Source: Actinomycetota bacterium (GTDB lineage Bacteria; Actinomycetota; UBA4738; HRBIN12). Taken from it: 64,000 nucleotides of DNA. Made by a program: the position numbers and the translations under genes. The notes under the pieces are model-generated. The model saw only the letters and a list, made by a program, of their open reading frames with translations, made no database searches and was not told the DNA's origin. Below, in pieces: positions 27,989 to 64,000 of this stretch (positions are counted from its first letter, which is position 1; every line of letters starts with the position of its first letter). The stretch is taken from positions 14,068-78,067 of the forward strand of contig JBBDHX010000035.1 in the NCBI GenBank assembly GCA_040880745.1, written 5' to 3'.

Positions 27989-28645
27989 TCAGACTGGAAC
28001 GAGGTCCCAGTTCCCGGGGAGCCCGGCGCCGGCCCACCCGGGCTCGGGCCGCCACTTCTCCCAGTCCTCGTCGAAGGGTGGCTCGCGCAGCAACACGTGC
28101 TCGACCGCGCGTTCGCCCCAATGGCGGAACCACGCGGCGTCCTCTTCGGTGAACATCCCCTGTTCCACGGCCTGGGCCAGTTCGTCCTCGTCCTTCCATG
28201 CCCACGAGGACCGATCCGGGGGGATCTGGACATCGAGGAGGTGTTCGACCGTGTCGAAGCCCGAGGGGGAACGCTGCAGCGGCGTCTGGAGGTTGATGTA
28301 GTACTCGGTCAGCGAACCTCCGTCATAGCCCAGGATCACTGCGTAGGGGGTGTCCGGGAAGGCGAACGAGAGCATGCTGGTCGCGCCGCGTTCTTCGTCG
28401 CGGAGCGTCCAGTCGGCGGCGGGCAGACGGAGTTCGGTTCCATCGGGACCGACGGGCACCTTGCACTGCACACCGGGCGGGACGTGGAGCATCTGCAGGT
28501 TCGGATCGTCACGGACGACGACGGCGGGCCGTGCGGAGAAGACCTTGCCGTCCCAGATCTCGCGGATCGCCACGACGTCTCCGGGGCGGTGCGGAGGCTG
28601 GATGTGGTCGTCGGGCTCACGCGTCGCGACCGCCTTCCCACCCAT
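27989..28645 (-). CDS. DUF402 (FomD/Ntdp-like nucleoside di/triphosphatase fold) protein
   Basis: 'YYINLQTP...DTVEHLLDVQI' and the overall length match DUF402 proteins as I remember them. Confidence 0.65.
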   Translation of the reverse strand: MGGKAVATREPDDHIQPPHRPGDVVAIREIWDGKVFSARPAVVVRDDPNLQMLHVPPGVQCKVPVGPDGTELRLPAADWTLRDEERGATSMLSFAFPDTPYAVILGYDGGSLTEYYINLQTPLQRSPSGFDTVEHLLDVQIPPDRSSWAWKDEDELAQAVEQGMFTEEDAAWFRHWGERAVEHVLLREPPFDEDWEKWRPEPGWAGAGLPGNWDLVPV

Positions 28646-28745
28646 GTGTTGGAGCCTACGTCTCGCCGGTGGTCCCGTGTGGCCCGGTTCCCATCGATCG
28701 GTCTTGACGGATGTCGGAGGAGGGGAGTACCTTCAGCAGTCCCTC

Positions 28746-28761
28746 TCGAACATACGTTCGA
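28746..28761. promoter_or_regulatory. LexA (SOS) box, perfect palindrome TCGAACATACGTTCGA
   Basis: It is an exact match to the actinobacterial/Gram-positive consensus TCGAAC-N4-GTTCGA and lies 41 nt upstream of ATG 28802. The embedded TACGTT fits a TANNNT -10 hexamer. It is the only such palindrome I found in the window. Confidence 0.8.
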
Positions 28762-28801
28762 TTCTCCTCCCGAGGGGCAGGCGATCACAGGCAGGCCGGG
28801 G

Positions 28802-29047
28802 ATGACGAAGCGTTTCGACGAACAGGTCCGGGTCGAACGCGACGCCGGCATGCCGTCGGCCTTCGAGTGGCGCGGTAAGCGCTATGAGATCCGTGACGTG
28901 ATCGGGAAATGGCGGATCGAGGGGCGCTGGTGGGATGACGGCCGCGACCGCGAGTATTGGCGGGTCGAGGCGCGCGGAGGAGCCGTCTGGGACCTGTACT
29001 TCGACCGTGCCAAGGACATCTGGCACATGGAACGGCTGTGGGACTAG
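28802..29047 (+). CDS. Small Trp/Arg-rich hypothetical protein (81 aa), first gene of the SOS cassette
   Basis: ATG 28802 is the first start after the LexA box, and the ORF ends 6 nt before dnaE2. The protein is MTKRFDEQVRVERDAGMPSAFEWRGKRYEIRDVIGKWRIEGRWWDDGRDREYWRVEARGGAVWDLYFDRAKDIWHMERLWD. Confidence 0.55.
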   Translation: MTKRFDEQVRVERDAGMPSAFEWRGKRYEIRDVIGKWRIEGRWWDDGRDREYWRVEARGGAVWDLYFDRAKDIWHMERLWD

Positions 29048-29053
29048 CGCGCC

Positions 29054-32000
29054 GTGTTCATCGCCTCCCCGTTCGTGCACCTGGACGTCCGCTCCTGTTT
29101 CTCGTTGAAGGAGGGCGCGTTCACGCCGGAGCAGCTCGCGGCGGCAGCCGCGAGCTGCGGGATGCCCGCCGTGGCCTTGACCGACCGCGACGGTTTGTAC
29201 GGCGCTGCGAGGTTCGTGCGAGCGTGCGAACGCGAAGGGGTCAAGCCGATCCTCGGGACCTCGCTGACGGTCCGGGCGTCCACACCGCCGCCCGGCGATG
29301 CGCACGTGGTCCTGCTCGCGCTCGATGAAGCCGGGTATGCGAATCTCTGTCGCCTGCTCACCGATGCCCACCTGCTGGGCGAGCGTGGCGACCCGTGGGT
29401 GGCCGCCGAACAGATCTGCGCGCACGCCGGGGGGCTGCTCGCGGTGCTCGGTCCACGCTCGCACCCGGGCCGGCTCGCGGTGAGCGGCCGCGTCGATGCC
29501 GCCGCGGGTCTGGCGTCATCCTTCCGGGAGGCCTTCGGGTCCGAACGGCTGCGCGTGGGCGTCGAGCACCGCCTGGAGGCCGGCTCCGACGCCGAGGTCC
29601 GGGCCATGCTGCGGTTCGCCGCCCGGCTCGAGGTTCCCGCGGTGCTCACGAACCCGGTGCGTTACCTGGTCCCCGAGGACGCCTTCCTCGCCGACGCGCT
29701 CGAGTGCATGCGCAAGCTCGTCCCCATCGCGTCGAACCACGTGAGCCGGGCCAACGCTGAGGGTTGGCTCAAGTCTGCCGGCGCGATGCGTGCGCTCGTC
29801 GCCGAACGTCCGGATCTGGCCTCAGAGACGCTCGCGATCGCCGAACTCGTCACCTTCGACCTGGATCTGCGGCGCTTGCGTTTCCCGGACTTCCCGACGC
29901 CGGCCGGCCGCGGCGCCGACGCGTTGCTGGCCGAGCGGTGTTGGCGCGGCGTGCACGAGCGCGGCCTGAAGGAAGACGAGATCTTGCGTGCCCGGATGCA
30001 CCTGGAGCTCTCGATGATCCGGCGGATGGGCTTCGCGGCGTACTTCCTGACCGTCGCGGACATCGTGGCCGACGTGAAGTCGATGGGGATCTTCGCGGCG
30101 TGCCGGGGGAGCGCGGCGGGGTCGCTCGTGTGTTACCTCACCGGCATCTCCGACGTGGACGCGCTGCGGCACGACCTGGCGTTCGAGCGGTTCTTGAACC
30201 CGATGCGCGATGAGGCGCCCGACATCGACATCGATGTCGAGTCGGCCCGTCGCGAGGATGTCTACGACATGATCTTGTCGCGTCACGGCACCGAACGCGC
30301 GGCATGCGTGGCGATGATCGACACCTACCGGGCGCGCAGCGCGATCCGCGAGGTGGGCAAGGCACTCGGCCTGCCCGAGGTCGAGGTGGGGCTCGTGGCG
30401 AAGTCCTTCCCTCACATCTCCGCGAGGCATCTGCGCGAGGGGCTCGAGCGCTTGCCCGAGCTGCAGGGCCTGAACCTGCCGATGCGCCATCTGGATCTCC
30501 TCTTCCGGGTGGCCGAACGGATCGATGGCTTCCCTCGTCACGTCGCGCTGCACCCCTGCGGGATCATCCTGGCCAGCCACGACCTGGTGGAGCGCGTCCC
30601 CCTGGAGCGCAGCGCCGGAGGCCACAGGATGGCGCAGGCCGACAAGGACGATGTCGAGTTGCTGGGCTACCTCAAGCTCGACATCCTCGGCGTACGGATG
30701 CTCTCCTCGATGCGTCACGCGATCGATGAGATCGCGCGCACCACCGGGGAGAAGGTCGACCTGGACCGCATCCCGCTGGACGACGAGCCCACCTTCGAGC
30801 TGATCCGGGCCTCCGACACGCTCGGGTGTTTCCAGATCGAATCGCCCGGCCAACGAGAACTGCTGCAGAAGCTGCAACCCACGCGGTTCGAGGATCTGAT
30901 CGTCGACATCTCGTTGTTCCGCCCCGGCCCTGTGAAGTCCGACATGATCCGGCCCTACCTGGCGTGCCGGAGCGGACAGCGCCGCCCCACCTACGTGCAC
31001 CCGGATCTGCGTCCGGTGCTCAAGGAGACCTTCGGGGTGATCGTCTTCCACGAGCAGGTGCTGCGGACGCTCGCGGCGCTCGCCGGGTACGACCTCACCT
31101 ACGCCGATCACGTCCGCCGCCATCTGGATGACGACGACATGCTGCCGGGGCTGCGCGCGGACTTCCTGATGCGCGCCGGGCAGCGCGGTGTCGATGCCGA
31201 CGCGGCCGAGCAGACCTGGGATGCGGTCGCGCAGTTCGCGTCGTTCGGGTTCTGCAAGGCGCACGCGGCGGCGTTCGCGGTGCCCACGTACCGGTCCTCG
31301 TGGCTCAAGACCCACCACCCGGCGCAGTTCATGGCCGGGATCTTGACCCACGACCCCGGCATGTACCCACGCCGTCTGCTGCTGGACGATGTCCGGCGTC
31401 GCGGGGTCCCGATCCTGCCGCTGCACGTCAACCGATCCGAGCCCGAGTACGTGGTGGAAGAGGCGGACGATGGCATCTTCGGCATCCGGCTGGGACTGCA
31501 GGACGTGCACGGGATCTCCCAGGCCGAGATCCGCTCGATCCTGACCGCGCGGGCGGAGCGGCCGTTCTCGAGCGTCGCCGACCTGCTGCGGCGCACCGAC
31601 GTGGCGCGGCCGGTGGCCGAGGCACTGGCCCACGCTGGGGCGTTCGACGGCCTCGAGGGTGCGAAGCACCGCCGCGACCATCTGTACGAGGCGATCACCG
31701 TCGATGCGCCCCGCGAGGGTGACCAGCTGACCCTGGCCGAAGCCTCGGTCCCAGCCCACGCGTTCGCGGAGTACACCGATGCCGAGGTCGTGCGCGCCGA
31801 ACTGGAGGTCCTCGGTCTGGACGCAACCCGGCACCTCGTGTCGTTCTACGAGCCGCTGCTGCACGACCTGGGTGTCACCCGCGCGAAGGGTCTGGCCTCC
31901 AAGCGGCAGGATGCATGGGTGATGGTGGCTGGGGTGAAGATCGCCACGCAGACCCCCGCGATCCGCAGCGGCCAGCGGATCATCTTCTTATCGCTGGACG

Positions 32001-32272
32001 ATGCCACGGGACCCATCGAGATCACGGTCTTCGAAGGGGTCCAGCAGAAGGTCGCCAAGACGGTGTTCCACGCCTACGCGATGGCCGTATGGGGCCAGCT
32101 ACGGCGGACGGGGGTCCAAGGCGTGAGCGTGGTGGCCGAAGAGGTCTGGGACCTGACGGCGCTGCATCGCGCGCGCCGCGAGGGACGGCTGCGCGAAGCC
32201 ATGGCGTCGCCCACCGTCCCGAACGCGCCCGCCCGGCGTCTGTGGCACACGAGCCCCGGCTCCGCGGGCTAG
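29054..32272 (+). CDS. dnaE2: Error-prone DNA polymerase III alpha paralog (DnaE2-type)
   Basis: 1072 aa. It has a PHP domain ('FVHLDVRSCFSLKEGA'), the pol III alpha core ('FDLDLRRLRFPDF', 'DIDIDVES') and an OB fold near the C-terminus. It has DnaE2 size and sits behind a LexA box. A second, replicative-type dnaE starts at 63227. Confidence 0.85.
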   Translation: MFIASPFVHLDVRSCFSLKEGAFTPEQLAAAAASCGMPAVALTDRDGLYGAARFVRACEREGVKPILGTSLTVRASTPPPGDAHVVLLALDEAGYANLCRLLTDAHLLGERGDPWVAAEQICAHAGGLLAVLGPRSHPGRLAVSGRVDAAAGLASSFREAFGSERLRVGVEHRLEAGSDAEVRAMLRFAARLEVPAVLTNPVRYLVPEDAFLADALECMRKLVPIASNHVSRANAEGWLKSAGAMRALVAERPDLASETLAIAELVTFDLDLRRLRFPDFPTPAGRGADALLAERCWRGVHERGLKEDEILRARMHLELSMIRRMGFAAYFLTVADIVADVKSMGIFAACRGSAAGSLVCYLTGISDVDALRHDLAFERFLNPMRDEAPDIDIDVESARREDVYDMILSRHGTERAACVAMIDTYRARSAIREVGKALGLPEVEVGLVAKSFPHISARHLREGLERLPELQGLNLPMRHLDLLFRVAERIDGFPRHVALHPCGIILASHDLVERVPLERSAGGHRMAQADKDDVELLGYLKLDILGVRMLSSMRHAIDEIARTTGEKVDLDRIPLDDEPTFELIRASDTLGCFQIESPGQRELLQKLQPTRFEDLIVDISLFRPGPVKSDMIRPYLACRSGQRRPTYVHPDLRPVLKETFGVIVFHEQVLRTLAALAGYDLTYADHVRRHLDDDDMLPGLRADFLMRAGQRGVDADAAEQTWDAVAQFASFGFCKAHAAAFAVPTYRSSWLKTHHPAQFMAGILTHDPGMYPRRLLLDDVRRRGVPILPLHVNRSEPEYVVEEADDGIFGIRLGLQDVHGISQAEIRSILTARAERPFSSVADLLRRTDVARPVAEALAHAGAFDGLEGAKHRRDHLYEAITVDAPREGDQLTLAEASVPAHAFAEYTDAEVVRAELEVLGLDATRHLVSFYEPLLHDLGVTRAKGLASKRQDAWVMVAGVKIATQTPAIRSGQRIIFLSLDDATGPIEITVFEGVQQKVAKTVFHAYAMAVWGQLRRTGVQGVSVVAEEVWDLTALHRARREGRLREAMASPTVPNAPARRLWHTSPGSAG

Positions 32273-32276
32273 GTCT

Positions 32277-33542
32277 ATGGTGGCTGTGATGACCGTGCGG
32301 CCCCCCGAGCCGATGCTCCATGTCGACCTCGATGCGTTCTACGCCGGGGTCGAGGTGCTCAAGGATCCCTCCCTCAAGGGCAAGCCCGTGGTGGTCGGCG
32401 GCATCGGGGCCCGCGGTGTGGTGGCGAGCGCGTCGTATGAGGCTCGCGCCTTCGGCATCCGCTCGGCGATGCCGGCGGTCCGCGCACGCCGGCTCTGCCC
32501 CGATGCGATCTTCCTGTCGGCGGACTTCGAGTCCTACCGGACGCACTCGAACCGTTTCCGCGAAGTGCTCCTATCCTATACGCCGCTCGTGGAGCCCATC
32601 TCGCTCGACGAGGCGTTCCTGGACGTGGGCGGGGCCACGCGTCTGTTCGGCTCCCCCCCACGCATCGCCGAACGGATCCGTGCAGAGGTCGAGCGTGAGG
32701 TGGGCGTCACGTGCTCGGTGGGTATCGCCGCCACGAAGTTCGTCGCCAAGCTGGCATCCGATCATTGCAAACCCCACGGCATGCTGCACATCGCGGCGGA
32801 GGACACGCTCGCCTATCTCGAGCCGTTGCCGGTCGGGCGCCTCTGGGGCGTGGGGGAGAAGACCGGGGAACTGCTGGGGCGGCTCGCGATCCGCACGGTG
32901 GGAGACCTGGCACGCACGCCCCGTCCCGTGTTGGAGCGTCTGATCGGGGAGGCGAGCGCCCGGCATCTGGGTGAGCTCGCCCATGGCATCGACGAACGCG
33001 ACGTGGTCGCGTACGAACTCCCCAAGTCGGTGAGCCACGAGGAAACCTTCGACCGCGACCTGGACGACGAGGACGAGATCCTGCGCGAACTCCTGCATCT
33101 GTCGGGCAAGGTCGCCGCACGCCTGCGCGAGGACAGCTACCGCGCCCGGACGGTCACGTTGAAGGCGCGGCTCGCCAGCTTCACGACCCTCACGCGAGCG
33201 CGGACGATGCGGGTCCCGACGGACCTTGGCTCGGATCTCTACCACGTGGTGGCGGAGCTGTACCGCGCCCTGCCGGGCGCCCGGCGGCGGATCAGATTGC
33301 TCGGGGTGCTGGCCACGGGGTTGATCCCGGCGGCCGCGGAGCAGCTGTCGTTGCTCCACGGCGAACGGTGGGGGGAGGTGGAGCGCACCCTCGATCGGAT
33401 CGAGGCCCGGTTCGGGCGGGGCGCCGCGACCCACGCCGTGCTGTTGGACCGCGATCGCTCGGAGCCACGGAGCCCGTCCTTCCGAGGAAACGGTGACCTC
33501 CGGTATGATCGACCCGACGGTCCACCTCGAGACCGGAGGTGA
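32277..33542 (+). CDS. dinB: Y-family DNA polymerase IV (DinB) with intact catalytic motifs
   Basis: 'LHVDLDAFYAGVE', 'SLDEAFLDV', 'GIAATKFVAKLASDHCKPHG' and 'LPVGRLWGVGEKT' are DinB motifs. A clamp-binding-like 'QLSLL' is followed by an extra tail of about 70 aa. Confidence 0.9.
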   Translation: MVAVMTVRPPEPMLHVDLDAFYAGVEVLKDPSLKGKPVVVGGIGARGVVASASYEARAFGIRSAMPAVRARRLCPDAIFLSADFESYRTHSNRFREVLLSYTPLVEPISLDEAFLDVGGATRLFGSPPRIAERIRAEVEREVGVTCSVGIAATKFVAKLASDHCKPHGMLHIAAEDTLAYLEPLPVGRLWGVGEKTGELLGRLAIRTVGDLARTPRPVLERLIGEASARHLGELAHGIDERDVVAYELPKSVSHEETFDRDLDDEDEILRELLHLSGKVAARLREDSYRARTVTLKARLASFTTLTRARTMRVPTDLGSDLYHVVAELYRALPGARRRIRLLGVLATGLIPAAAEQLSLLHGERWGEVERTLDRIEARFGRGAATHAVLLDRDRSEPRSPSFRGNGDLRYDRPDGPPRDRR

Positions 33543-33546
33543 CCAG

Positions 33547-33906
33547 GTGCCGTTGAGCGATCACGAACAGAAGATCCTCGCCGAGATCGAGCGCAAGCTC
33601 GCCGAGGACGACCCCACCTTCGTCGAGGAAGTGGGGCGTACCGACCTGTACTCCCACCTGGCCCGCCGCATCCGTTTGGCGGCCGCCGCGTTCGCCGTGG
33701 GACTCGTGATGCTGCTGATCCTGTTCGTCGTCTCGGTGTGGTTCGCGGTGCTCGGTTTCGCGGTCATGCTGCTGTCCGCCGTGCTGATCTATCGATACCT
33801 CGGTCAGCTCGGACGCGATCAGCTGCGCGCGATGCAAGAAGAAGGTCGCCTGTCACTGCCCGGCTTGCTCAGCCGGATCGCCGCACGCTTCCGTTCTTCC
33901 TCGTGA
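33547..33906 (+). CDS. DUF3040 family membrane protein
   Basis: Starts at GTG 33547. 'PLSDHEQKILAEIERKLAEDDPTF' is followed by two TM helices, which is the typical DUF3040 architecture. Confidence 0.7.
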   Translation: MPLSDHEQKILAEIERKLAEDDPTFVEEVGRTDLYSHLARRIRLAAAAFAVGLVMLLILFVVSVWFAVLGFAVMLLSAVLIYRYLGQLGRDQLRAMQEEGRLSLPGLLSRIAARFRSSS

Positions 33907-34131
33907 TCGGCGGATCACACATCGCGCTCGTGTCGTAGTCCCTCCGGGTGATTTCCTCAGGCCCCTCACCTCTGCGCTTGCCACGCGTGCGCGCCTCGTT
34001 GTACAACGGGGTCCCCTTCCCCAAGGGGCGCGCGACCGTCAGACCCGTCAGGCACCTTCCTCGCCCGATACGGACGGCCCGCCCGAGCAGTGATCGGTCG
34101 GCAGAACGAGGAACGGAGGTCACGCGGCGGG

Positions 34132-34614
34132 ATGGAGGGGTTCACGGCTCATCAAGCGTCGAAGTTCACCGGATGCTCGCCGCGCCAGCTCCGCTACTGG
34201 GATCAGATCGGCTTGGTGCAGCCGTCGGTGCAGAGCACGGGCGGGCGCCCCGGGATCCCCCGTCTGTATGCGTTCCGCGATCTCGTCGCGCTCCGCGTCG
34301 TCCGGTCCCTCTTGGATGGCGGGATGTCGCTGCAACGGGTCCGGCGTTCGTGGGAGTTCTTGAACGAGAAGGCCGGATTGGACAAACATCTCTCGGAGGT
34401 TCGGCTCGTCACCGACGGTCAGAGTATCTTCAAGATCTGCCGTCGTGACGGCGAGGTCATGGATGCCCTGAAGGAAGGACAGATGGCGTTCTTCGTGGCG
34501 ATCGATGACATCGCCACCTCGGTCACGACCAACGTCCGGTCCTTCCGCGAGGACCGGGAGAAGTTCGTACGGGCCCTGCGGGAAGCCGCGGCGCACACGG
34601 CCACGGGTGGCTGA
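34132..34614 (+). CDS. MerR-family HTH transcriptional regulator
   Basis: ATG 34132 follows GGAGG. 'FTAHQASKFTGCSPRQLRYWDQIGLV...LYAFRDLVALRVV' is a MerR-type HTH plus wing. Confidence 0.8.
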   Translation: MEGFTAHQASKFTGCSPRQLRYWDQIGLVQPSVQSTGGRPGIPRLYAFRDLVALRVVRSLLDGGMSLQRVRRSWEFLNEKAGLDKHLSEVRLVTDGQSIFKICRRDGEVMDALKEGQMAFFVAIDDIATSVTTNVRSFREDREKFVRALREAAAHTATGG

Positions 34615-34620
34615 GGCCGC

Positions 34621-36864
34621 TCAGGCCGCGGGACGCCTGCGGGGCAACCGGTCCCGCCATGTTCGCAGCTCCGCCAGGGAACGGACGATCTCGCCGGCGT
34701 CGGCCTCAGCGTCCAGGACATCCTCGCTCGAGAGCTCCCGAGGACCGTACGCCGCTCGCTCTGCCAGGCGGCTCAGCCGTCCGACGCTTTCCGTAGCCAC
34801 CGGGATCACGGAAGCCAGTCGCCAGGCGTACTCCTCGGGCGTCTCGCCCGGCGCGCGTGGCACGCCGAGGTCGCGCGCATCGCGGCAACACGCGTCGTAG
34901 ATCGCGAGCACGAGAGCCCTCGGCGCCGGTCCGGCCCGACGGATCGCGCGCCGCCGCCGCGCCCTGCGGACGAACGGCCAGGCGAGTAGCACCGCCAAGG
35001 CGATGGCGAGCGCAGCGACGAGCGCGATGCTGAGCCACCACGTCACGGATCGGCCGGCGTCGAACGATCCCGATCCGCCCAGAGGAGCCAATCCCGGATC
35101 CCCTTCCACGCCGAATCCCCGCTTCGGGTCGTTCAGACCGGTGCCGCCACCAGGTCCTTCTCGGGGGCCGCTGCTTGCACCGCAGCCCGCGGCGGAGGTT
35201 TCGCATGACTGGGCGAAGCTGCGGCTGGCGTAGGTCGCGGCCGTCGGGTTCGCGCGACCGGGTGTCGGCTCGAACGCCAGCCATCCGTAGCCCTCGAACG
35301 GAACCTCGACCCAGGCATGCAGGTCGTCCGTCGTGACGCTCCACCCTTGTTCCCCGGGAAGAGGGTCACCGCGCGTGAACCCGACCGCGATGCGAGCAGG
35401 GATCCCGATAGACCGCAGCAGCATGGCCATCGCCGTGGAGAACTGCTGGCAGAAGCCGCGCTTCGTCAACTCCAAGAACTCGAGGATGGTGGCGGCATCC
35501 TCCCTGAACGACACGTCGGTGTCGTAGATGTAGCCGTCGCTCAAGAGGTGTCGTTGGATCGCGTACACCTGGTCGTACATGGTCGTCGCGCCTTCGGTCC
35601 AACTGCGCGCGAGGATGGCGATGCGGGCGGAGACCCCTTGTGGGAGCTGCGTCAGCGAGGGGTCGGGGGCATCGGCGAACGGGACTTGACGCAGGTCCTC
35701 GGGCGTCGGTGCCACGTAGACCGAGGTGACCGTGTAGGTGTCGCCCGGTTCGAGGTTGCCGTTGATCAACGCAGTCTGGCTGTTCGCGAACCATGAGACA
35801 TCGCCGTCCAGGTCGATCGAGGTGGCTTGGTAGGCGGTGGGGATCTCCGGGAAGAGCAGGTCGTTGGTGACCTCGAAGGTCTGCGTGATGGTGCGGCCCT
35901 CCGGCGGTTCACCGAGCGTTTGACCCGGGGCCACCGCGACCGAGGGCTCGTCGGTCCGCTGCCAACGCACGCCATCGAAGTACTCCAGGCCCACCATCCG
36001 CCAGTAGGACTCGGTGTCGGTGCGGACCCGGAAGACCTCCTGCTCCTGCCCGCGCGTGAGTTCGCTGGCCATCGACACCAGGGTGCTCACGCGGACCCCA
36101 CCCTCGCCGTTGATGGCCGAGAGGTCGATCACGGCACGTCCCCCGAACCCCGGCACGATCACCGGTGCCGCCACCGCGACCGCCACGGCCGCCCCGGCGA
36201 TCCTGCGAGCGCCCCGGCCGGCGGCCGGCACGAGACGGTCCCGACGCCCCGGACCGTTCCACACCGGCCCCCATCCCTGCACCCGTCGGAGCGAGTCGGC
36301 GAACAAGACGCTCATCGCGGCGAGCAAGAAGGCGACCCCGTACATGGGGCGGACGAGGTCCTCCAGCACGCTGTCCGCGAACACCACGAGGGCCGCCGGT
36401 GGAACGAGCGACATCAGCGGACTCCCGGCCCGGATGGCGAGCGAATGACAGGAGAAGACCGCCGCCCAGACCGCGGTCGTGGATGCGAACAGCAGCGGTG
36501 TCACGGGGGGCGCGGGCGCGATCTGGAGCCGGGCCTGCTCGCCGACCTCGATGGCCGCCGCGCCCATGGCGCGGAGCGTCTCCAACGTGGGGAGCCCATA
36601 CCAGGTCGAGGAGGGGAACACGGCGAGGCCCAGCCCGACGACGACGAGGATCGCGCTCGCGACCGTCGCGACCAGGAGGCCCCGGCGTTCGAACGCCCAG
36701 GCGATGACGCCGGATGCGACGCCCATCCCGACCAAACGGACCGTCGAGGCCCGCCCGTCGAAGACGCGCCCGAACGACAGGCCGATCGTCACCGCGACCA
36801 GCGTGATCGCGGCGAGCGAGGTCAGGCGCTGAACTCGAGCCGACGTTCCCTGGGTTGATGCCAT
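34621..36864 (-). CDS. Transglutaminase-like membrane protein (DUF3488/TgpA-like)
   Basis: Multiple N-terminal TM helices are present. The core is 'RGFCQQFSTAMAMLLRSIGIPARIAVGF...DLHAWVEV' (Cys-His-Asp). The start is ATG 36864 or 36909. Confidence 0.85.
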   Translation of the reverse strand: MASTQGTSARVQRLTSLAAITLVAVTIGLSFGRVFDGRASTVRLVGMGVASGVIAWAFERRGLLVATVASAILVVVGLGLAVFPSSTWYGLPTLETLRAMGAAAIEVGEQARLQIAPAPPVTPLLFASTTAVWAAVFSCHSLAIRAGSPLMSLVPPAALVVFADSVLEDLVRPMYGVAFLLAAMSVLFADSLRRVQGWGPVWNGPGRRDRLVPAAGRGARRIAGAAVAVAVAAPVIVPGFGGRAVIDLSAINGEGGVRVSTLVSMASELTRGQEQEVFRVRTDTESYWRMVGLEYFDGVRWQRTDEPSVAVAPGQTLGEPPEGRTITQTFEVTNDLLFPEIPTAYQATSIDLDGDVSWFANSQTALINGNLEPGDTYTVTSVYVAPTPEDLRQVPFADAPDPSLTQLPQGVSARIAILARSWTEGATTMYDQVYAIQRHLLSDGYIYDTDVSFREDAATILEFLELTKRGFCQQFSTAMAMLLRSIGIPARIAVGFTRGDPLPGEQGWSVTTDDLHAWVEVPFEGYGWLAFEPTPGRANPTAATYASRSFAQSCETSAAGCGASSGPREGPGGGTGLNDPKRGFGVEGDPGLAPLGGSGSFDAGRSVTWWLSIALVAALAIALAVLLAWPFVRRARRRRAIRRAGPAPRALVLAIYDACCRDARDLGVPRAPGETPEEYAWRLASVIPVATESVGRLSRLAERAAYGPRELSSEDVLDAEADAGEIVRSLAELRTWRDRLPRRRPAA

Positions 36865-38057
36865 CGTTCCGCGAGCCTCATGGTCGGGGACATGACGATG
36901 CAATCCCACCCCCCTCGCGCGAGCGTGAGGGTGGCGTGTGTGGCACGTGCCTGGAGTTGCTCGCGGCGACTGGGTGGCGCCGACGCCGGGTCGACCGGAT
37001 GCACGAGGATGGCCAGCTTCGGGCCGAACCCGGCCCCGCCCCTGACCAGTGCGGGCAGTTCCTGGCTCGCCGGCGGGGCGCCGACGAACACGAGCGAGGT
37101 GTCCGCGGTGCTCGCGGCGCGGAGCGCCGTGATCGAGGACGCCAGCGACGGGACCCGGGTGGAGCCGACGGCAGCCAGGGCATCGAGGAAGGAGTCGCCG
37201 CCGTAGACGGCGGCCGGTCGCTCCGAGGTCGCGAGCCGGATCGTGAATCCTGCGTGGGTGAGCAGCACACCCACGCTGGCGACGGCCGACACCGCCCGCT
37301 CGAACGCCGGCGTGTGTTCGCGGCCGAGGCCCGCCTCGCGGTTGTCCAGGAAGAGCAGACCGGTGGCCCGGCGTGATGCCTCGTCCTGGCGGATCATCAG
37401 CTCACCGGTGCGTGCCACCGAGGGCCAGTGGATCCGTCGCAGATCGTCGCCTTCTTGGTACGAGCGCATGGTGTAGTAGTCATCGCCGCTGCGCTGGAGC
37501 TGCCGAGCCCTGGCCGCGCCGATCCCCCGGCCGGTGGTGGCGTCCGGTGGCGTCGAGAGGTCCTCGACCTCGGGTGTCACGATGAGTTCGTCGTACCCAT
37601 CCATCCGCGCGCGGCGCCGGGAGACGCCGAACGCGTCGGTGGCGTCGATCGTGAGAGGCCCCAAGCGGTAGACGCCACGAGCCTGCGGAAGCAGCGAGTA
37701 GGACACGTCGCGCCCACCTCGCCCCCGCAGGTCCGTCACGACCAGTCGAGCCGGCCTGCCGAGCGGGCTCGGCAGGGCGTCCTCGAGCAGGAGCATCGGT
37801 GCGGGGGTGGTGGCGAGGTTCTCGACCTCCAGGCCGACACGCAGCCGCGTTCCGGGCGCCACGCGTGTCTCCGACAGGCGCCGGCGAACGCGGATGCGGC
37901 GCTGGCTCCCCGATCGGATGGTCAGTGACGCGAGGAAGGGGAGCGCCGCGAGGCCGATCCCGGTCACCTCGAGCCCCGGAGAACCGACCAGGCGCGCCAG
38001 GAACCACATCGAGACACCCGCGAGGGACAGGGTGACGCCCTTGGACGTCAGCATCAC
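36822..38057 (-). CDS. DUF58 domain protein
   Basis: Two N-terminal TM helices are present. 'YQEGDDLRRIHWPSVARTGELMIRQDE' is the DUF58 signature. The start overlaps the moxR stop. Confidence 0.85.
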   Translation of the reverse strand: MMLTSKGVTLSLAGVSMWFLARLVGSPGLEVTGIGLAALPFLASLTIRSGSQRRIRVRRRLSETRVAPGTRLRVGLEVENLATTPAPMLLLEDALPSPLGRPARLVVTDLRGRGGRDVSYSLLPQARGVYRLGPLTIDATDAFGVSRRRARMDGYDELIVTPEVEDLSTPPDATTGRGIGAARARQLQRSGDDYYTMRSYQEGDDLRRIHWPSVARTGELMIRQDEASRRATGLLFLDNREAGLGREHTPAFERAVSAVASVGVLLTHAGFTIRLATSERPAAVYGGDSFLDALAAVGSTRVPSLASSITALRAASTADTSLVFVGAPPASQELPALVRGGAGFGPKLAILVHPVDPASAPPSRREQLQARATHATLTLARGGWDCIVMSPTMRLAERWHQPRERRLEFSA

Positions 38058-39055
38058 GAGCCCTCCGCGACAGGGACTTCGATCTCGTCCAGGAGTTCCT
38101 GCAGCACGGTCGCGGTCGTCCGCCCTGCCATGGCCGCATCGGCCGAGATGATCACGCGATGTGCGAGGCCCGGGATGACGAGCGACTTGACGTCGTCGGG
38201 GATGACGTAGTCGCGCTCGCTCGCCGCGGCCAACGCCCGGGCGGCACGGAGCAACATGATCGAGGCTCGGGGACTGGCGCCCAGGTAGATGTCACCATGA
38301 CGTCGGGTGGCTTCGACGAGGCTCACGATGTAGCTGCGCAGCGCCGGTGCCACGTGCACGGTGCGCACGGACTCGATCATGTCCGCCACCCCCCGGGCGT
38401 CGGTGACGCTGCTGATGTCTTCGAGCGGTTGGCCCGTCGCGTGGCTCGCGAGGATCTGGGCTTCCACGTCGGCGTCGGGGTAGCCGATCGACAAACGGAG
38501 CATGAACCGGTCCAGTTGGGCCTCGGGCAGGGGATAGGTCCCTTCGTGTTCCACCGGGTTCTGGGTCGCGATCACCATGAACGGGGTACCGAGGATCCTG
38601 GTCTCGGCGTCGGTGGTGACCTGGCGCTCCTCCATGCACTCCAACAGTGCCGATTGGGTCTTCGGGGAGGCGCGGTTGATCTCGTCTCCCAGCACGATGT
38701 TGGCGAAGATGGCACCCGGGCGGAACTCGAAGTCACCGTGCTCCTGGTTGAACACGTTCACGCCGGTGATGTCGGTCGGGAGCATGTCGGGGGTGAACTG
38801 GATCCGTCGGAACGAACAATCGATGGAGCGAGCGATCGCTTTGGCGAGCATCGTCTTGCCGACGCCGGGAACGTCCTCGATGAGCAGATGGCCCTCGGCC
38901 AGCAGCGCGACGAGGGCCAGGCGGATCTCCGCGTGCTTGCCCCGCAGGACCCTTTCCACGTTGGTCTCGATCTGGCGGAACTGGGCGCCGAACGCCTCCC
39001 AGTCGCGCGTGTGTTCCCGGAGTTCCAAGCCTGCACCCCCTGAAAGTCCCACCAT
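38054..39055 (-). CDS. MoxR-family AAA+ ATPase
   Basis: Starts at ATG 39055. 'LLIEDVPGVGKTMLAKAIA', 'RIQFTPDMLPTDITG' and 'LGDEINRASPKTQSALLECMEE' are MoxR motifs. Confidence 0.9.
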   Translation of the reverse strand: MVGLSGGAGLELREHTRDWEAFGAQFRQIETNVERVLRGKHAEIRLALVALLAEGHLLIEDVPGVGKTMLAKAIARSIDCSFRRIQFTPDMLPTDITGVNVFNQEHGDFEFRPGAIFANIVLGDEINRASPKTQSALLECMEERQVTTDAETRILGTPFMVIATQNPVEHEGTYPLPEAQLDRFMLRLSIGYPDADVEAQILASHATGQPLEDISSVTDARGVADMIESVRTVHVAPALRSYIVSLVEATRRHGDIYLGASPRASIMLLRAARALAAASERDYVIPDDVKSLVIPGLAHRVIISADAAMAGRTTATVLQELLDEIEVPVAEGS

Positions 39056-39301
39056 GGTACGCCCCCGATGTATCCCGGTACGACCGGGCGTCGGCCGGCC
39101 GCGATCCTGCATGCCTTCGGGCGCCCGGATCGTGACAGTAGGAGGAAGGGGCCGGGCCGGGCCGGCGGACGCCCCGCGCGGCCCCAGGTTCGCAACTTCA
39201 GGCATCCCGGTCCGGCCCGACCCCTGGGCCCCGAGATTACATCGTTGTGATCCGCATGATGCGGATCCGGCTCTTCACCGATGGGAAGTAGACTCCTGCG
39301 G

Positions 39302-39787
39302 ATGGGACGTGCGCTCGTCCTCAACGTGACCGAAGTGCCGCTCGCGGTCGTTCCCGCGAGGCGTGCGGTCGTGCTCGTCCTCAAGGACAAGGCCGACGTG
39401 GTCGTCTCCAACGGCGCCATCTTCCGGGCCGAGCACATCGCGATGGACGCGCCCTCGGTCGTTCGTTTGCGTCATTTCGTGCACGTTCCCTACCGGGCGC
39501 ACGCGCCGCTCACGCGCAGAGCCGTGTTCGCGCGGGACGGGTGGGCGTGCCAGTACTGCGGTACGGTTGCAGAGAACCTCGACCACGTTGTGCCGCGCAG
39601 CCGCGGCGGGCTGCATGTGTGGGAGAACGTGGTGGCGGCGTGCCGGCGGTGCAACGCCAAGAAGATGGACCGCACGCCGGCTGAGGCCGGCTACCGGCTC
39701 GCCCGGCAACCTTTCGCTCCCTCCGACGGCTTCCGGCTCACCCTCGGTCAGCCCGACCCGGACTGGGAACGCTTCCTCCTGTCGTAG
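39302..39787 (+). CDS. HNH endonuclease (McrA-like small HNH protein)
   Basis: 'CQYCG...LDHVVPRSRGG...WENVVAACRRCNAKK' is the HNH motif. Starts at ATG 39302. Confidence 0.85.
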   Translation: MGRALVLNVTEVPLAVVPARRAVVLVLKDKADVVVSNGAIFRAEHIAMDAPSVVRLRHFVHVPYRAHAPLTRRAVFARDGWACQYCGTVAENLDHVVPRSRGGLHVWENVVAACRRCNAKKMDRTPAEAGYRLARQPFAPSDGFRLTLGQPDPDWERFLLS

Positions 39788-39838
39788 CCGATCCCCGCTC
39801 CGCGTCCTATCCGAACAGCAGTTCGATGCCTTCTGCCA

Positions 39839-39884
39839 TTGACGCAGTGGAGCGTTAGTGGCATAAACGGGGACCCAAGTGGAG
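39839..39884 (+). promoter_or_regulatory. Candidate Pmra promoter (TTGACG-17 nt-CATAAA) with phased GTGG repeats, possible MraZ operator
   Basis: TTGACG is at 39839-39844 and CATAAA at 39862-39867. GTGG starts at 39847, 39858 and 39879, and a CGGGG lies near 39868, giving spacings of roughly 11, 11 and 10 bp. Confidence 0.4.
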
Positions 39885-39899
39885 GAAAGGGGAGGACGC

Positions 39900-40328
39900 G
39901 TGGCCGAACTGCTGGGCACGCACAGCTACCAGCTCGACCCGAAGGGGCGCGTGTCCCTGCCGGCGAGGTTCCGTGAGGCGTTCGCCGACGGGGCCTGGCT
40001 CACCATCGGCCAGGACGGGTGTCTCTTCGCCTTCCCCAGGGTCGAATGGGAGCGGCGGTCCGTCGAGGTCGCAGCGTCCCCCCTTTCCGACGCACCGGGG
40101 CGTGCCTACGCGCGGATGTTCTTCGGCTCATCCGACGAAGCGAAGCTCGACACGCAGGGACGGCTGACCATCCCCGGGCGGCTGCGCGAGACGGTCGGCA
40201 TCCGCAAGGACGTCGTCGTGCTGGGCGTGCGCGACCGCATGGAGATCTGGGACCGCGAGACGTATGAGCGCTACGAGACCACGTTCGCCGGCGCGTATCA
40301 GGCCGGGACCATCGAGCCAGGGAGGTAG
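39900..40328 (+). CDS. mraZ: Transcriptional regulator MraZ
   Basis: GTG 39900 follows GGAGGA. 'LGTHSYQLDPKGRVSLPARFR' and a second 'DTQGRLTIPGRLR' are the duplicated SpoVT/AbrB-like MraZ motifs. Confidence 0.9.
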   Translation: MAELLGTHSYQLDPKGRVSLPARFREAFADGAWLTIGQDGCLFAFPRVEWERRSVEVAASPLSDAPGRAYARMFFGSSDEAKLDTQGRLTIPGRLRETVGIRKDVVVLGVRDRMEIWDRETYERYETTFAGAYQAGTIEPGR

Positions 40329-63226: not shown

Positions 63227-64000
63227 ATGTCCGACCCGAGTTTCGTCCACCTGCACGTCCACTCCGAGTACTCGCTGCTCGACGGCGCCGCCCGGATCGA
63301 AGCGCCGAGATCCAACCCGCAGGCGGCAACCCTGTTGTCCGAGGCCCAGCGGATGGGGATGCCGGCCTTGGCCATCACCGATCACGGCGCGATGTTCGGG
63401 GCATTGCGGTTCTACGAGGCTGCCCGTGCGGCAGGCGTCACCCCGATCATCGGCGTCGAGGCCTACGTCGCTCCGGGATCTCGCTTCGATCGGACACCCG
63501 GTGAGAGCGCGGAGAAGTACCACCACCTGACCTTGCTGGCGGAGAACGAGACCGGGTATCGCAACCTCTTGCGCCTGGTTTCGTCGGCGTACCTGGAGGG
63601 CTTCTACCACCGCCCGCGCATGGACAAGGCATCGATGGCCGAACATGCAGAAGGGTTGATCTGCTTGTCGGGGTGCCTTTCCTCCGAGATCGGTGTGGCG
63701 CTCGTGGGTGCTCAGCACGACCGCGCCGTCCGCGCGGCGGGGGAGTACAAGGACATCTTCGGTGCGGGGAACTACTACATAGAGTTGCAGGACCACGGGC
63801 TCGCGGATCAGCGGGCTATCTTGCCGCAACAGATCGCTGTGGCCGCCGAGGTCGGCGTTCCCCTGGTGGCGACGAACGACCTGCACTACACCTTGCCGAG
63901 CGATGCGAAACCACACGACGTCTTGCTCTGCATCCAACAGCAGAAGCTGCAGTCTGACCCCAAGCGTCTGCGCTTCGATGCGGAGGAGTTCTACCTGAAG
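63227..64000 (+). CDS. dnaE: DNA polymerase III alpha subunit (replicative DnaE1), 5' part; continues beyond the window
   Basis: This ORF is not in the track because no stop is reached. My own translation from ATG 63227 is MSDPSFVHLHVHSEYSLLDGAARIE...ITDHGAMFGALRFYEAARAAGVTPIIGVEAYV...YHHLTLLAENETGYRNLLRLVS...YYIELQDHG, which is a typical PHP domain. Confidence 0.9.
   Translation, partial: MSDPSFVHLHVHSEYSLLDGAARIEAPRSNPQAATLLSEAQRMGMPALAITDHGAMFGALRFYEAARAAGVTPIIGVEAYVAPGSRFDRTPGESAEKYHHLTLLAENETGYRNLLRLVSSAYLEGFYHRPRMDKASMAEHAEGLICLSGCLSSEIGVALVGAQHDRAVRAAGEYKDIFGAGNYYIELQDHGLADQRAILPQQIAVAAEVGVPLVATNDLHYTLPSDAKPHDVLLCIQQQKLQSDPKRLRFDAEEFYLK

Follow-up and report, generated by a model that had tools for sequence, protein, structure and literature searches.

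The locus examined here raises the question of how the error-prone DNA polymerase DnaE2 works where ImuA and ImuB are missing. More specifically, it bears on the use of a free-standing ImuB C-terminal domain (ImuB-C) as a portable DnaE2 adaptor, on RecA as a substitute for ImuA, and on the role of a second polymerase. The locus lies in a stretch of 64,000 nucleotides (nt) of contig JBBDHX010000035.1 (assembly GCA_040880745.1, Actinomycetota lineage HRBIN12), which is referred to here as the window and whose positions are used as coordinates throughout. Three genes encoding an 81-amino-acid (aa) protein, a DnaE2-type polymerase and a Y-family polymerase (PolY) follow one another on one strand behind a palindromic LexA-type box. 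We propose, with a probability of roughly 70%, that they constitute an SOS-controlled operon of the DnaE2B-PolY-ImuB-C-RecA putative mutasome type, in which DnaE2B is combined with an active PolY, a standalone ImuB-C and RecA (Timinskas and Venclovas, Nucleic Acids Research 2019 and, for the 2026 paper, PMC12926913). The type has been reported from Actinobacteria alone, where the genomes lack imuA and imuB; its representative is Tessaracoccus lapidicaptus, and RecA was proposed as the replacement of ImuA; the arrangement was foreshadowed in PMC3765255 and PMC6511836. The window appears to hold the elements of the type, namely a separate ImuB-C, an apparently active PolY with a RecA-N-terminus-like (RecA-NT-like) motif, and co-localisation of the three genes. 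An earlier, sequence-only reading of this DNA had implied an undescribed variant; the module corresponds instead to the type just named, as a distant member of a type described computationally between 2019 and 2026, and is no new kind of system.

Cassette layout and promoter

The features of the cassette and its upstream region are listed below.

28704..28709, + strand: putative -35 hexamer TTGACG of the cassette promoter, conserved in relatives
28712..28733, + strand: match to the PafBC (RecA-NDp) consensus of PMC8635444, with TGTCGG at 28712-28717 and the -10 TACCTT at 28728-28733
28746..28761, + strand: predicted LexA (SOS) box TCGAACATACGTTCGA, a perfect palindrome conserved in relatives
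28802..29047, + strand: imuB-C, separate ImuB C-terminal domain protein (DUF6504), 81 aa with 8 Trp, assigned from Pfam PF20114, profile matches and conservation
29054..32272, + strand: dnaE2, DnaE2B-like error-prone C-family polymerase, 1072 aa, assigned from Pfam, NCBIfam and motifs
32277..33542, + strand: polY/dinB, Y-family polymerase with intact catalytic residues, 421 aa, scoring above the NF003015 cut-off
33339..33356, + strand: predicted beta-clamp-binding-like motif EQLSLL (PolY residues 355-360), conserved
33363..33452, + strand: RecA-N-terminus-like motif ERWGEVERTLDRIEARFGRGAATHAVLLDR (PolY residues 363-392), conserved and aligned to RecA by hhalign
33453..33539, + strand: low-complexity, non-conserved C-terminal extension of PolY (residues 393-421), variable or absent in relatives

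The sequence-only reading had described a palindrome ahead of three tightly packed genes, and both the coordinates and the gaps of 6 nt and 4 nt were confirmed. Its proposal of a damage-regulated translesion or mutagenesis module lacking ImuA and a canonical ImuB is supported as well. No imuA or imuB was found within the 64-kb window, nor in the 10-kb flanks of the related loci L001 and L003, and tblastn detected no recA, lexA or second Y-family gene in the window. A generic terminator scan, whose matches were only at chance level, gave no terminator-like site between the cassette genes.

A scan of 185,579 species-representative genomes identified 272 species-level genomes encoding a close relative; nearly all of the best 80 of these are metagenome-assembled genomes (MAGs) of uncultured soil Actinomycetota. 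The related loci are designated L001-L085, and gene-order counts were made on the 68 loci with enough DNA. One of them, L006, shares 95-100% protein identity with the window over the six genes compared.

The palindrome is the sole perfect TCGAAC-N4-GTTCGA in the window, and its core, CGAAC-N4-GTTCG, occurs twice in the 64 kb against 0.12 expected, a count of two that was reached in none of 100 shuffles. It is located 12 nt downstream of the -10 TACCTT (10-12 nt among relatives), over the expected transcription start. The promoter itself, TTGACG-N18-TACCTT, is of the sigma-A type. Among the relatives, GAAC-N4-GTTC is present 29-81 nt upstream of imuB-C in 85 out of 85 loci, with the TC..GA flanks of the box kept in 65 of 81, and TTGAC(G/C/T) followed after 17 or 18 nt by TAnnnT precedes the box in all 80 distinct upstream regions. 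Two more distant loci show related layouts: in L087, TTGACA…TACGGT is followed by the LexA box, and in L090 the box lies between TTGACA and TATACT. A consensus LexA palindrome that lies over the promoter or transcription start and is conserved in orthologous promoters characterises the actinobacterial LexA regulon, and the box of the window shows this pattern. The box is a predicted LexA site, and the reading that the pattern supports is repression by LexA at a canonical promoter.

The -10 had previously been placed at TACGTT, overlapping the palindrome. That hexamer does fit TANNNT, but as the -10 of the main promoter it was rejected; in relatives the spacer of the box often reads ACAT or AGGT, which leaves no TANNNT, and the conserved promoter is the invariant TTGAC/TAnnnT pair upstream of the box. 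Conservation also extends well beyond the -35 hexamer, over the block cTTGACGGATGTCgg (28702-28717), which contains the PafBC-like TGTCGG. The same block is duplicated before a second, dnaE2-proximal LexA box in loci of the L016 type. It may be an extended -35, a PafBC site or the site of another regulator.

The three encoded proteins

The 81-aa protein matches Pfam DUF6504 (PF20114) with an E-value of 1e-14 and has hundreds of close homologues, 73-93% identical. In an alignment of 22 sequences from relatives, conservation begins exactly at M1 and 41 of the 81 residues are invariant. Longer N-terminal forms of 95-115 aa, found in many database entries, were rejected, their extension being the promoter and LexA box translated ('PLEHTFD'). 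Across 77 distinct orthologous ORFs (open reading frames), differences at codon positions 1, 2 and 3 numbered 743, 489 and 2165, and 68% of the changed codons were synonymous. As the substitutions are of the coding type and dominated by synonymous changes, the small ORF is a real gene under purifying selection, a point on which the sequence-only reading had staked its proposal.

Searched against 1.84 billion proteins, a profile built for the family matched 1398 representative clusters, mostly stand-alone proteins of 80-100 aa. It also matched Y-family-like proteins that are long, divergent and catalytically degenerate, at their extreme C-termini, namely residues 506-576 of P0260 (579 aa) and residues 296-371 of P0222 (371 aa); for P0260, hhalign returned a probability of 97.6% with 42% identity over 72 columns. 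P0260 is ImuB-like, because it begins '...ACVRIPRFPIGAV' where active enzymes carry 'DLDAFYA'. In an alignment of 59 diverse members of the family, W74 is invariant, and conservation reaches 90% or more at W37, W43 and W44. The AlphaFold2 model of the small protein is all-beta, with six strands (pLDDT 90, pTM 0.80). A search of PDB sequences with the profile gave no match, and a PDB fold search with the model gave nothing significant (best E=0.25, TM <=0.43), the latter in agreement with the published 'novel beta-barrel fold' of ImuB-C. Aravind and colleagues (2013, PMC3765255) described ImuB-C as a beta-rich domain, ~80-100 aa long, in which a C-terminal Trp is highly conserved and basic residues are conserved as well; it may be fused to ImuB or encoded solo, in operons with DnaE2 and/or DinB, or beside UmuC. 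Comparison of the window protein with published ImuB-C proteins by blastp gave E-values of 5e-8 to 8e-5; a full-text literature search for 'DUF6504' returned no papers. Judged from these sequence and profile matches, the 81-aa protein is the ImuB C-terminal beta-barrel domain (ImuB-C, DUF6504) encoded separately. It had earlier been taken for a basic protein standing in the place of ImuA. With 18 lysine and arginine residues against 18 aspartate and glutamate residues it is in fact charge-neutral, and the Pfam and profile matches assign it to ImuB-C; the suggestion that it acts as an adaptor is plausible, although not as a stand-in for ImuA.

The 1072-aa protein contains the Pfam PHP, DNA_pol3_alpha, finger, HHH_6 and OB domains of a C-family polymerase, and its polymerase aspartates are intact (PDIDID at 389-394 and LKLDILG at 540-546). 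Compared with FVHLHVHSEYSLLDG in the presumed replicative dnaE1 that begins at 63227, the metal-ligand motif of its PHP domain (FVHLDVRSCFSLKEGA, residues 7-22) is degenerate. Reference sequences for pairwise comparison were taken from the supplement of PMC12926913. The N-terminal 400 aa scored 203 bits against the T. lapidicaptus DnaE2B (39% identity) and 191 bits against a Streptomyces DnaE2B, versus 167-169 bits against two DnaE2A proteins; two further DnaE2B representatives scored lower, at 144 and 120 bits. The N-terminal motif FVHL.V.S.FS also resembles DnaE2B.

The 421-aa protein was assigned as DNA polymerase IV, scoring 373 bits with NF003015 against a cut-off of 367. It keeps VDLDAFYAGVE (D17, D19) and SLDEAFLDV (D111, E112), which are conserved in 60 aligned relatives, so that the catalytically intact Y-family member of the sequence-only reading stands. 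In the same alignment conservation starts near residue 13, and translation may in fact begin at M13 (32313), not at 32277.

The tail of PolY had been described as a QLSLL clamp-like motif followed by an unusual stretch. QLSLL occupies residues 356-360 and is followed by 61 more residues. In the 60 orthologous proteins the little-finger domain is followed by EQL(a/s)LL, then by the nearly invariant ERWgdVERtlDRIExRFGrGAAtxAxLLDR, then by an extension of variable length and sequence that some of them lack. Motifs of the QL[SD]LF type are known to bind the beta clamp, and EQLSLL is by this likeness a predicted clamp-binding motif. The nearly invariant stretch aligned to RecA residues 9-28 (…ALxxALxQIEKQFGKGSxM…) with an hhalign probability of 89% and E=2e-6, one of the RecA N-termini used being matched exactly by a sequence in the supplement of PMC12926913. 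Timinskas and Venclovas reported RecA-NT-like motifs in many Y-family polymerases and in ImuB, where the motif binds ImuA'. Because of this match, the tail reads as a clamp motif, a RecA/ImuA docking motif and a dispensable extension; the clamp-like motif of the earlier description is thereby retained, and the unusual tail becomes a RecA-NT-like motif with a non-conserved extension. The likely substitute for ImuA is RecA, which would be recruited through this motif in the PolY tail.

Conservation in relatives and alternative readings

In 68 out of 68 loci imuB-C, dnaE2 and polY occur in this order on one strand. Where other genes separate imuB-C from dnaE2, a LexA box belonging to dnaE2 is present in 12 of the 18 loci whose insert includes an opposite-strand gene, versus 4 of 26 with purely co-directional inserts (Fisher p=0.001), and these second boxes abut a TAnnnT -10 of their own, e.g. 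TACAATC-GAAC. Since boxes are re-created before dnaE2 in split operons, selection keeps both imuB-C and dnaE2 under LexA control, and this shared control is independent evidence that the two act together. A LexA box in every relative, re-created when the operon is split, thus constitutes regulatory evidence that the parts belong together. One further locus, L052 (JBLMXP010000201.1), is a 12-kb contig with an imuB-C locus (89% identical) filed as a Planctomycetaceae MAG, and is probably a binning contaminant.

Several observations weigh against the assignment to the DnaE2B-PolY-ImuB-C-RecA type. The best NCBIfam model for the 1072-aa protein, 'error-prone DNA polymerase' (NF004225), gave 798 bits, under its cut-off of 939, and this protein appears DnaE2B-like by pairwise scores over 400 residues, not by phylogeny. 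The ImuB-C of the window is only 30% identical to that of T. lapidicaptus. The RecA-NT similarity of PolY is a short motif; a PDB profile search with the 32-residue motif placed Thermotoga maritima RecA residues 11-26 in the top 5 with E ~1, which is not significant alone. Lastly, in 47 of the 68 loci additional genes amounting to 0.2-3.4 kb separate imuB-C from dnaE2, and in 14 of the 68 an MFS transporter gene lies between dnaE2 and a polY without its own box; a LexA box of its own was never seen for polY in the related loci. Given these intervening genes, PolY could be a neighbour rather than a subunit. The unit would then be ImuB-C and DnaE2 only, as in the Arthrobacter alpinus pair, with PolY an ordinary Pol IV that shares the SOS transcript and the neighbourhood. 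Such a division would be in keeping with the constant position of polY beside DUF3040, MerR and TgpA, even in L087, which suggests that it belongs to that neighbourhood, with the occurrence of imuB-C and dnaE2 without polY in L090 and in the published DnaE2B-ImuB-C type, and with the frequency of RecA-NT motifs among stand-alone PolY enzymes. We nevertheless consider it unlikely, as polY follows dnaE2 in all 68 loci of the lineage and also in L087, and the MFS insert is co-directional where checked (L007 and L020), so that co-transcription of polY is still possible. In addition, the PolY of the window is most similar to that of the T. lapidicaptus system (44% identity, 286 bits, its best reference match), and the published tetramer models of the homologues from that system (VEP41449, ImuB-C; VEP41450, DnaE2B; VEP41451, PolY; consecutive genes, listed in the supplement of PMC12926913) score ~0.87 (AF-Multimer pTM/ipTM).

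The regulation of the cassette can also be read differently. Positions 28712-28733 are an exact copy of the mycobacterial PafBC motif tGTCgg-N10-tAnnnT (PMC8635444), the sole exact match in the 64 kb against 0.08 expected, and GTC-N12-TAnnnT is kept in 65 of the 80 distinct upstream regions; TACCTT is the -10 in either promoter reading. Induction might therefore be driven mainly by PafBC, via sigma adaptation at a RecA-NDp-type promoter, with LexA contributing only an additional layer; mycobacterial recA, with both elements upstream, is such a case, and mycobacterial genes with both motifs are known. PafBC promoters are, however, characteristically without a -35 element (PMC8635444), whereas here all 80 regions have a TTGAC -35 at a spacing of 17-18 nt and 15 of them have lost GTC, and L087 keeps the promoter and box but not GTC. 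Because TTGAC is invariant where GTC is not, the match may be mere conserved spacer. We regard a leading role for PafBC as doubtful, and its co-activation of the cassette promoter as a tentative suggestion from the motif match. Far less probable is that the palindrome and small ORF are incidental, the cassette being constitutive and the ORF a non-functional remnant. A generic sigma-70 scan did find no promoter, as such a reading would have it, but it is already contradicted by the comparative data: the box found at all 85 loci and again before dnaE2 in split operons, the invariant residues and synonymous-dominated changes of the small protein, and the breadth of its family. Overall, an SOS-controlled operon of the DnaE2B-PolY-ImuB-C-RecA type is the reading we favour.

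Both junctions of the cassette are insertion hot spots, and several of the inserts are DNA-repair genes. Those found between imuB-C and dnaE2 encode an MBL-fold protein, a uracil-DNA glycosylase, a pyrimidine-dimer-glycosylase-like protein (146 aa), a PIN/RHH toxin-antitoxin, an aminotransferase and an ECF sigma factor. After the cassette, relatives carry genes for DUF3040, a MerR regulator, TgpA, DUF58 and MoxR; in the window this block (polY, DUF3040, MerR/HspR-like regulator, TgpA transglutaminase, DUF58, MoxR ATPase) spans 33493-39205, and it is conserved even in L087. The DUF3040 protein is SCO2097-like, its conserved part starting at ~33547, 4 nt after the polY stop, and its gene may be co-transcribed with the cassette; the MerR/HspR-like regulator is encoded at 34090-34614. 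On the other side, a divergent DUF402/FomD-like gene (27989-28645, - strand) shares a 156-nt intergenic region with the cassette and has the same place and orientation in L001 and L003, the LexA box lying ~100 nt upstream of its start codon.

CGAAC-N4-GTTCG occurs at one other place in the window, in a second LexA-type box, CCGAACAGCAGTTCGA at 39811-39826. This box is intergenic: an HNH endonuclease gene (39281-39787) ends 24 nt before it, and mraZ (39879-40328), with which the dcw cell-division cluster begins, starts 53 nt downstream. Its CC..GA flank variant is shared by the imuB-C boxes of 9 relatives. Cell division or mraZ may be under SOS control through this box. Finally, a second Pol III alpha gene, presumably the replicative dnaE1, lies ~30 kb downstream of dnaE2 (63227-64000, + strand) and runs off the end of the window; its PHP motif is intact (MSDPSFVHLHVHSEYSLLDG).

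Proposed mechanism and known systems

The following steps are drawn from published models of homologous systems, and for the RecA complex from AlphaFold models of the homologous system only. While LexA occupies the box, initiation would be blocked; after DNA damage, filaments of RecA on single-stranded DNA would trigger LexA cleavage and so lift the block. ImuB-C would then dock on the PHP domain of DnaE2, which is the main ImuB-DnaE2 interface in the Mycobacterium tuberculosis model. PolY would tether the assembly to the beta clamp via EQLSLL and to a RecA monomer via its RecA-NT-like motif, RecA taking the place of ImuA, and the complex would carry out damage-induced translesion synthesis and mutagenesis. 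As both polymerases have apparently intact active sites, PolY might insert and DnaE2 extend. In its fullest form this would be a two-polymerase mutasome, with ImuB-C coupling a PolY inserter to a DnaE2 extender on the clamp and a RecA monomer, and with a PafBC -26 element and the LexA box gating one promoter. We think that combination improbable; if true, it would be a bacterial analogue of the two-step bypass by Rev1 and Pol zeta.

Among known systems, E. coli Pol V (UmuD'2C-RecA-ATP) is likewise SOS-controlled and combines a Y-family polymerase carrying clamp and RecA-NT motifs with a small beta-rich subunit and one RecA; it differs in the unrelated fold of UmuD' and in having no C-family polymerase. 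The Geobacter sulfurreducens operon lexA-imuB-C-polY (GeoPolY-like), which is cited in PMC6511836 as damage-induced and forming one transcription unit, shares the standalone ImuB-C and active Y-family polymerase with the window but, as presented there, is proteobacterial, has no DnaE2 and includes lexA within the operon. The Streptomyces scDinB2-DnaE2 system (iPolY-DnaE2B-RecA) shares with the window an actinobacterial host, DnaE2B beside a RecA-NT-bearing Y-family protein and the lack of ImuA and ImuB; its Y-family protein is inactive, however, and it has no ImuB-C.

The mycobacterial ImuA'-ImuB-DnaE2 system has in common with the window a LexA-type SOS box, an error-prone C-family DnaE2 and, within the system as a whole, the ImuB-C beta-barrel, a clamp-binding motif and a RecA-NT motif. 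In the window, by contrast, no gene for ImuA or ImuA' was found from 28.7 to 33.6 kb or in the flanking DNA, and the presumed replacement of ImuA' is RecA. No acidic catalytic residue is missing from the Y-family protein, whereas ImuB is catalytically dead; ImuB-C is a separate 81-aa polypeptide rather than a fused domain, and DnaE2 appears to be of the B rather than the A group. The Arthrobacter alpinus DnaE2B-ImuB-C pair (ALV45564/ALV45565) resembles the window in its standalone ImuB-C beside DnaE2B, its lack of ImuA and ImuB and its actinobacterial host; it has no associated PolY, whereas polY follows dnaE2 in every relative of the window lineage.

The T. lapidicaptus system shows the same gene order of imuB-C, dnaE2 and active polY, an actinobacterial host, a RecA-NT-like motif on PolY and a cassette without imuA or imuB. 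Besides the low identity of ImuB-C, the differences are the length of DnaE2 (1277 aa against 1072 aa in the window) and the origin of the window in an uncultured soil lineage of Actinomycetota. Within that large lineage, to judge from the 272 species-level genomes matched, the split form with free ImuB-C, active PolY and DnaE2 is the standard arrangement. To the description of the DnaE2B-PolY-ImuB-C-RecA type, for which the main text of PMC12926913 gives no promoter or LexA-box architecture and no comparative behaviour of this kind, the present analysis contributes lineage-wide conservation, re-created LexA boxes and a PafBC-like element, which are useful additions that leave the published picture unchanged.

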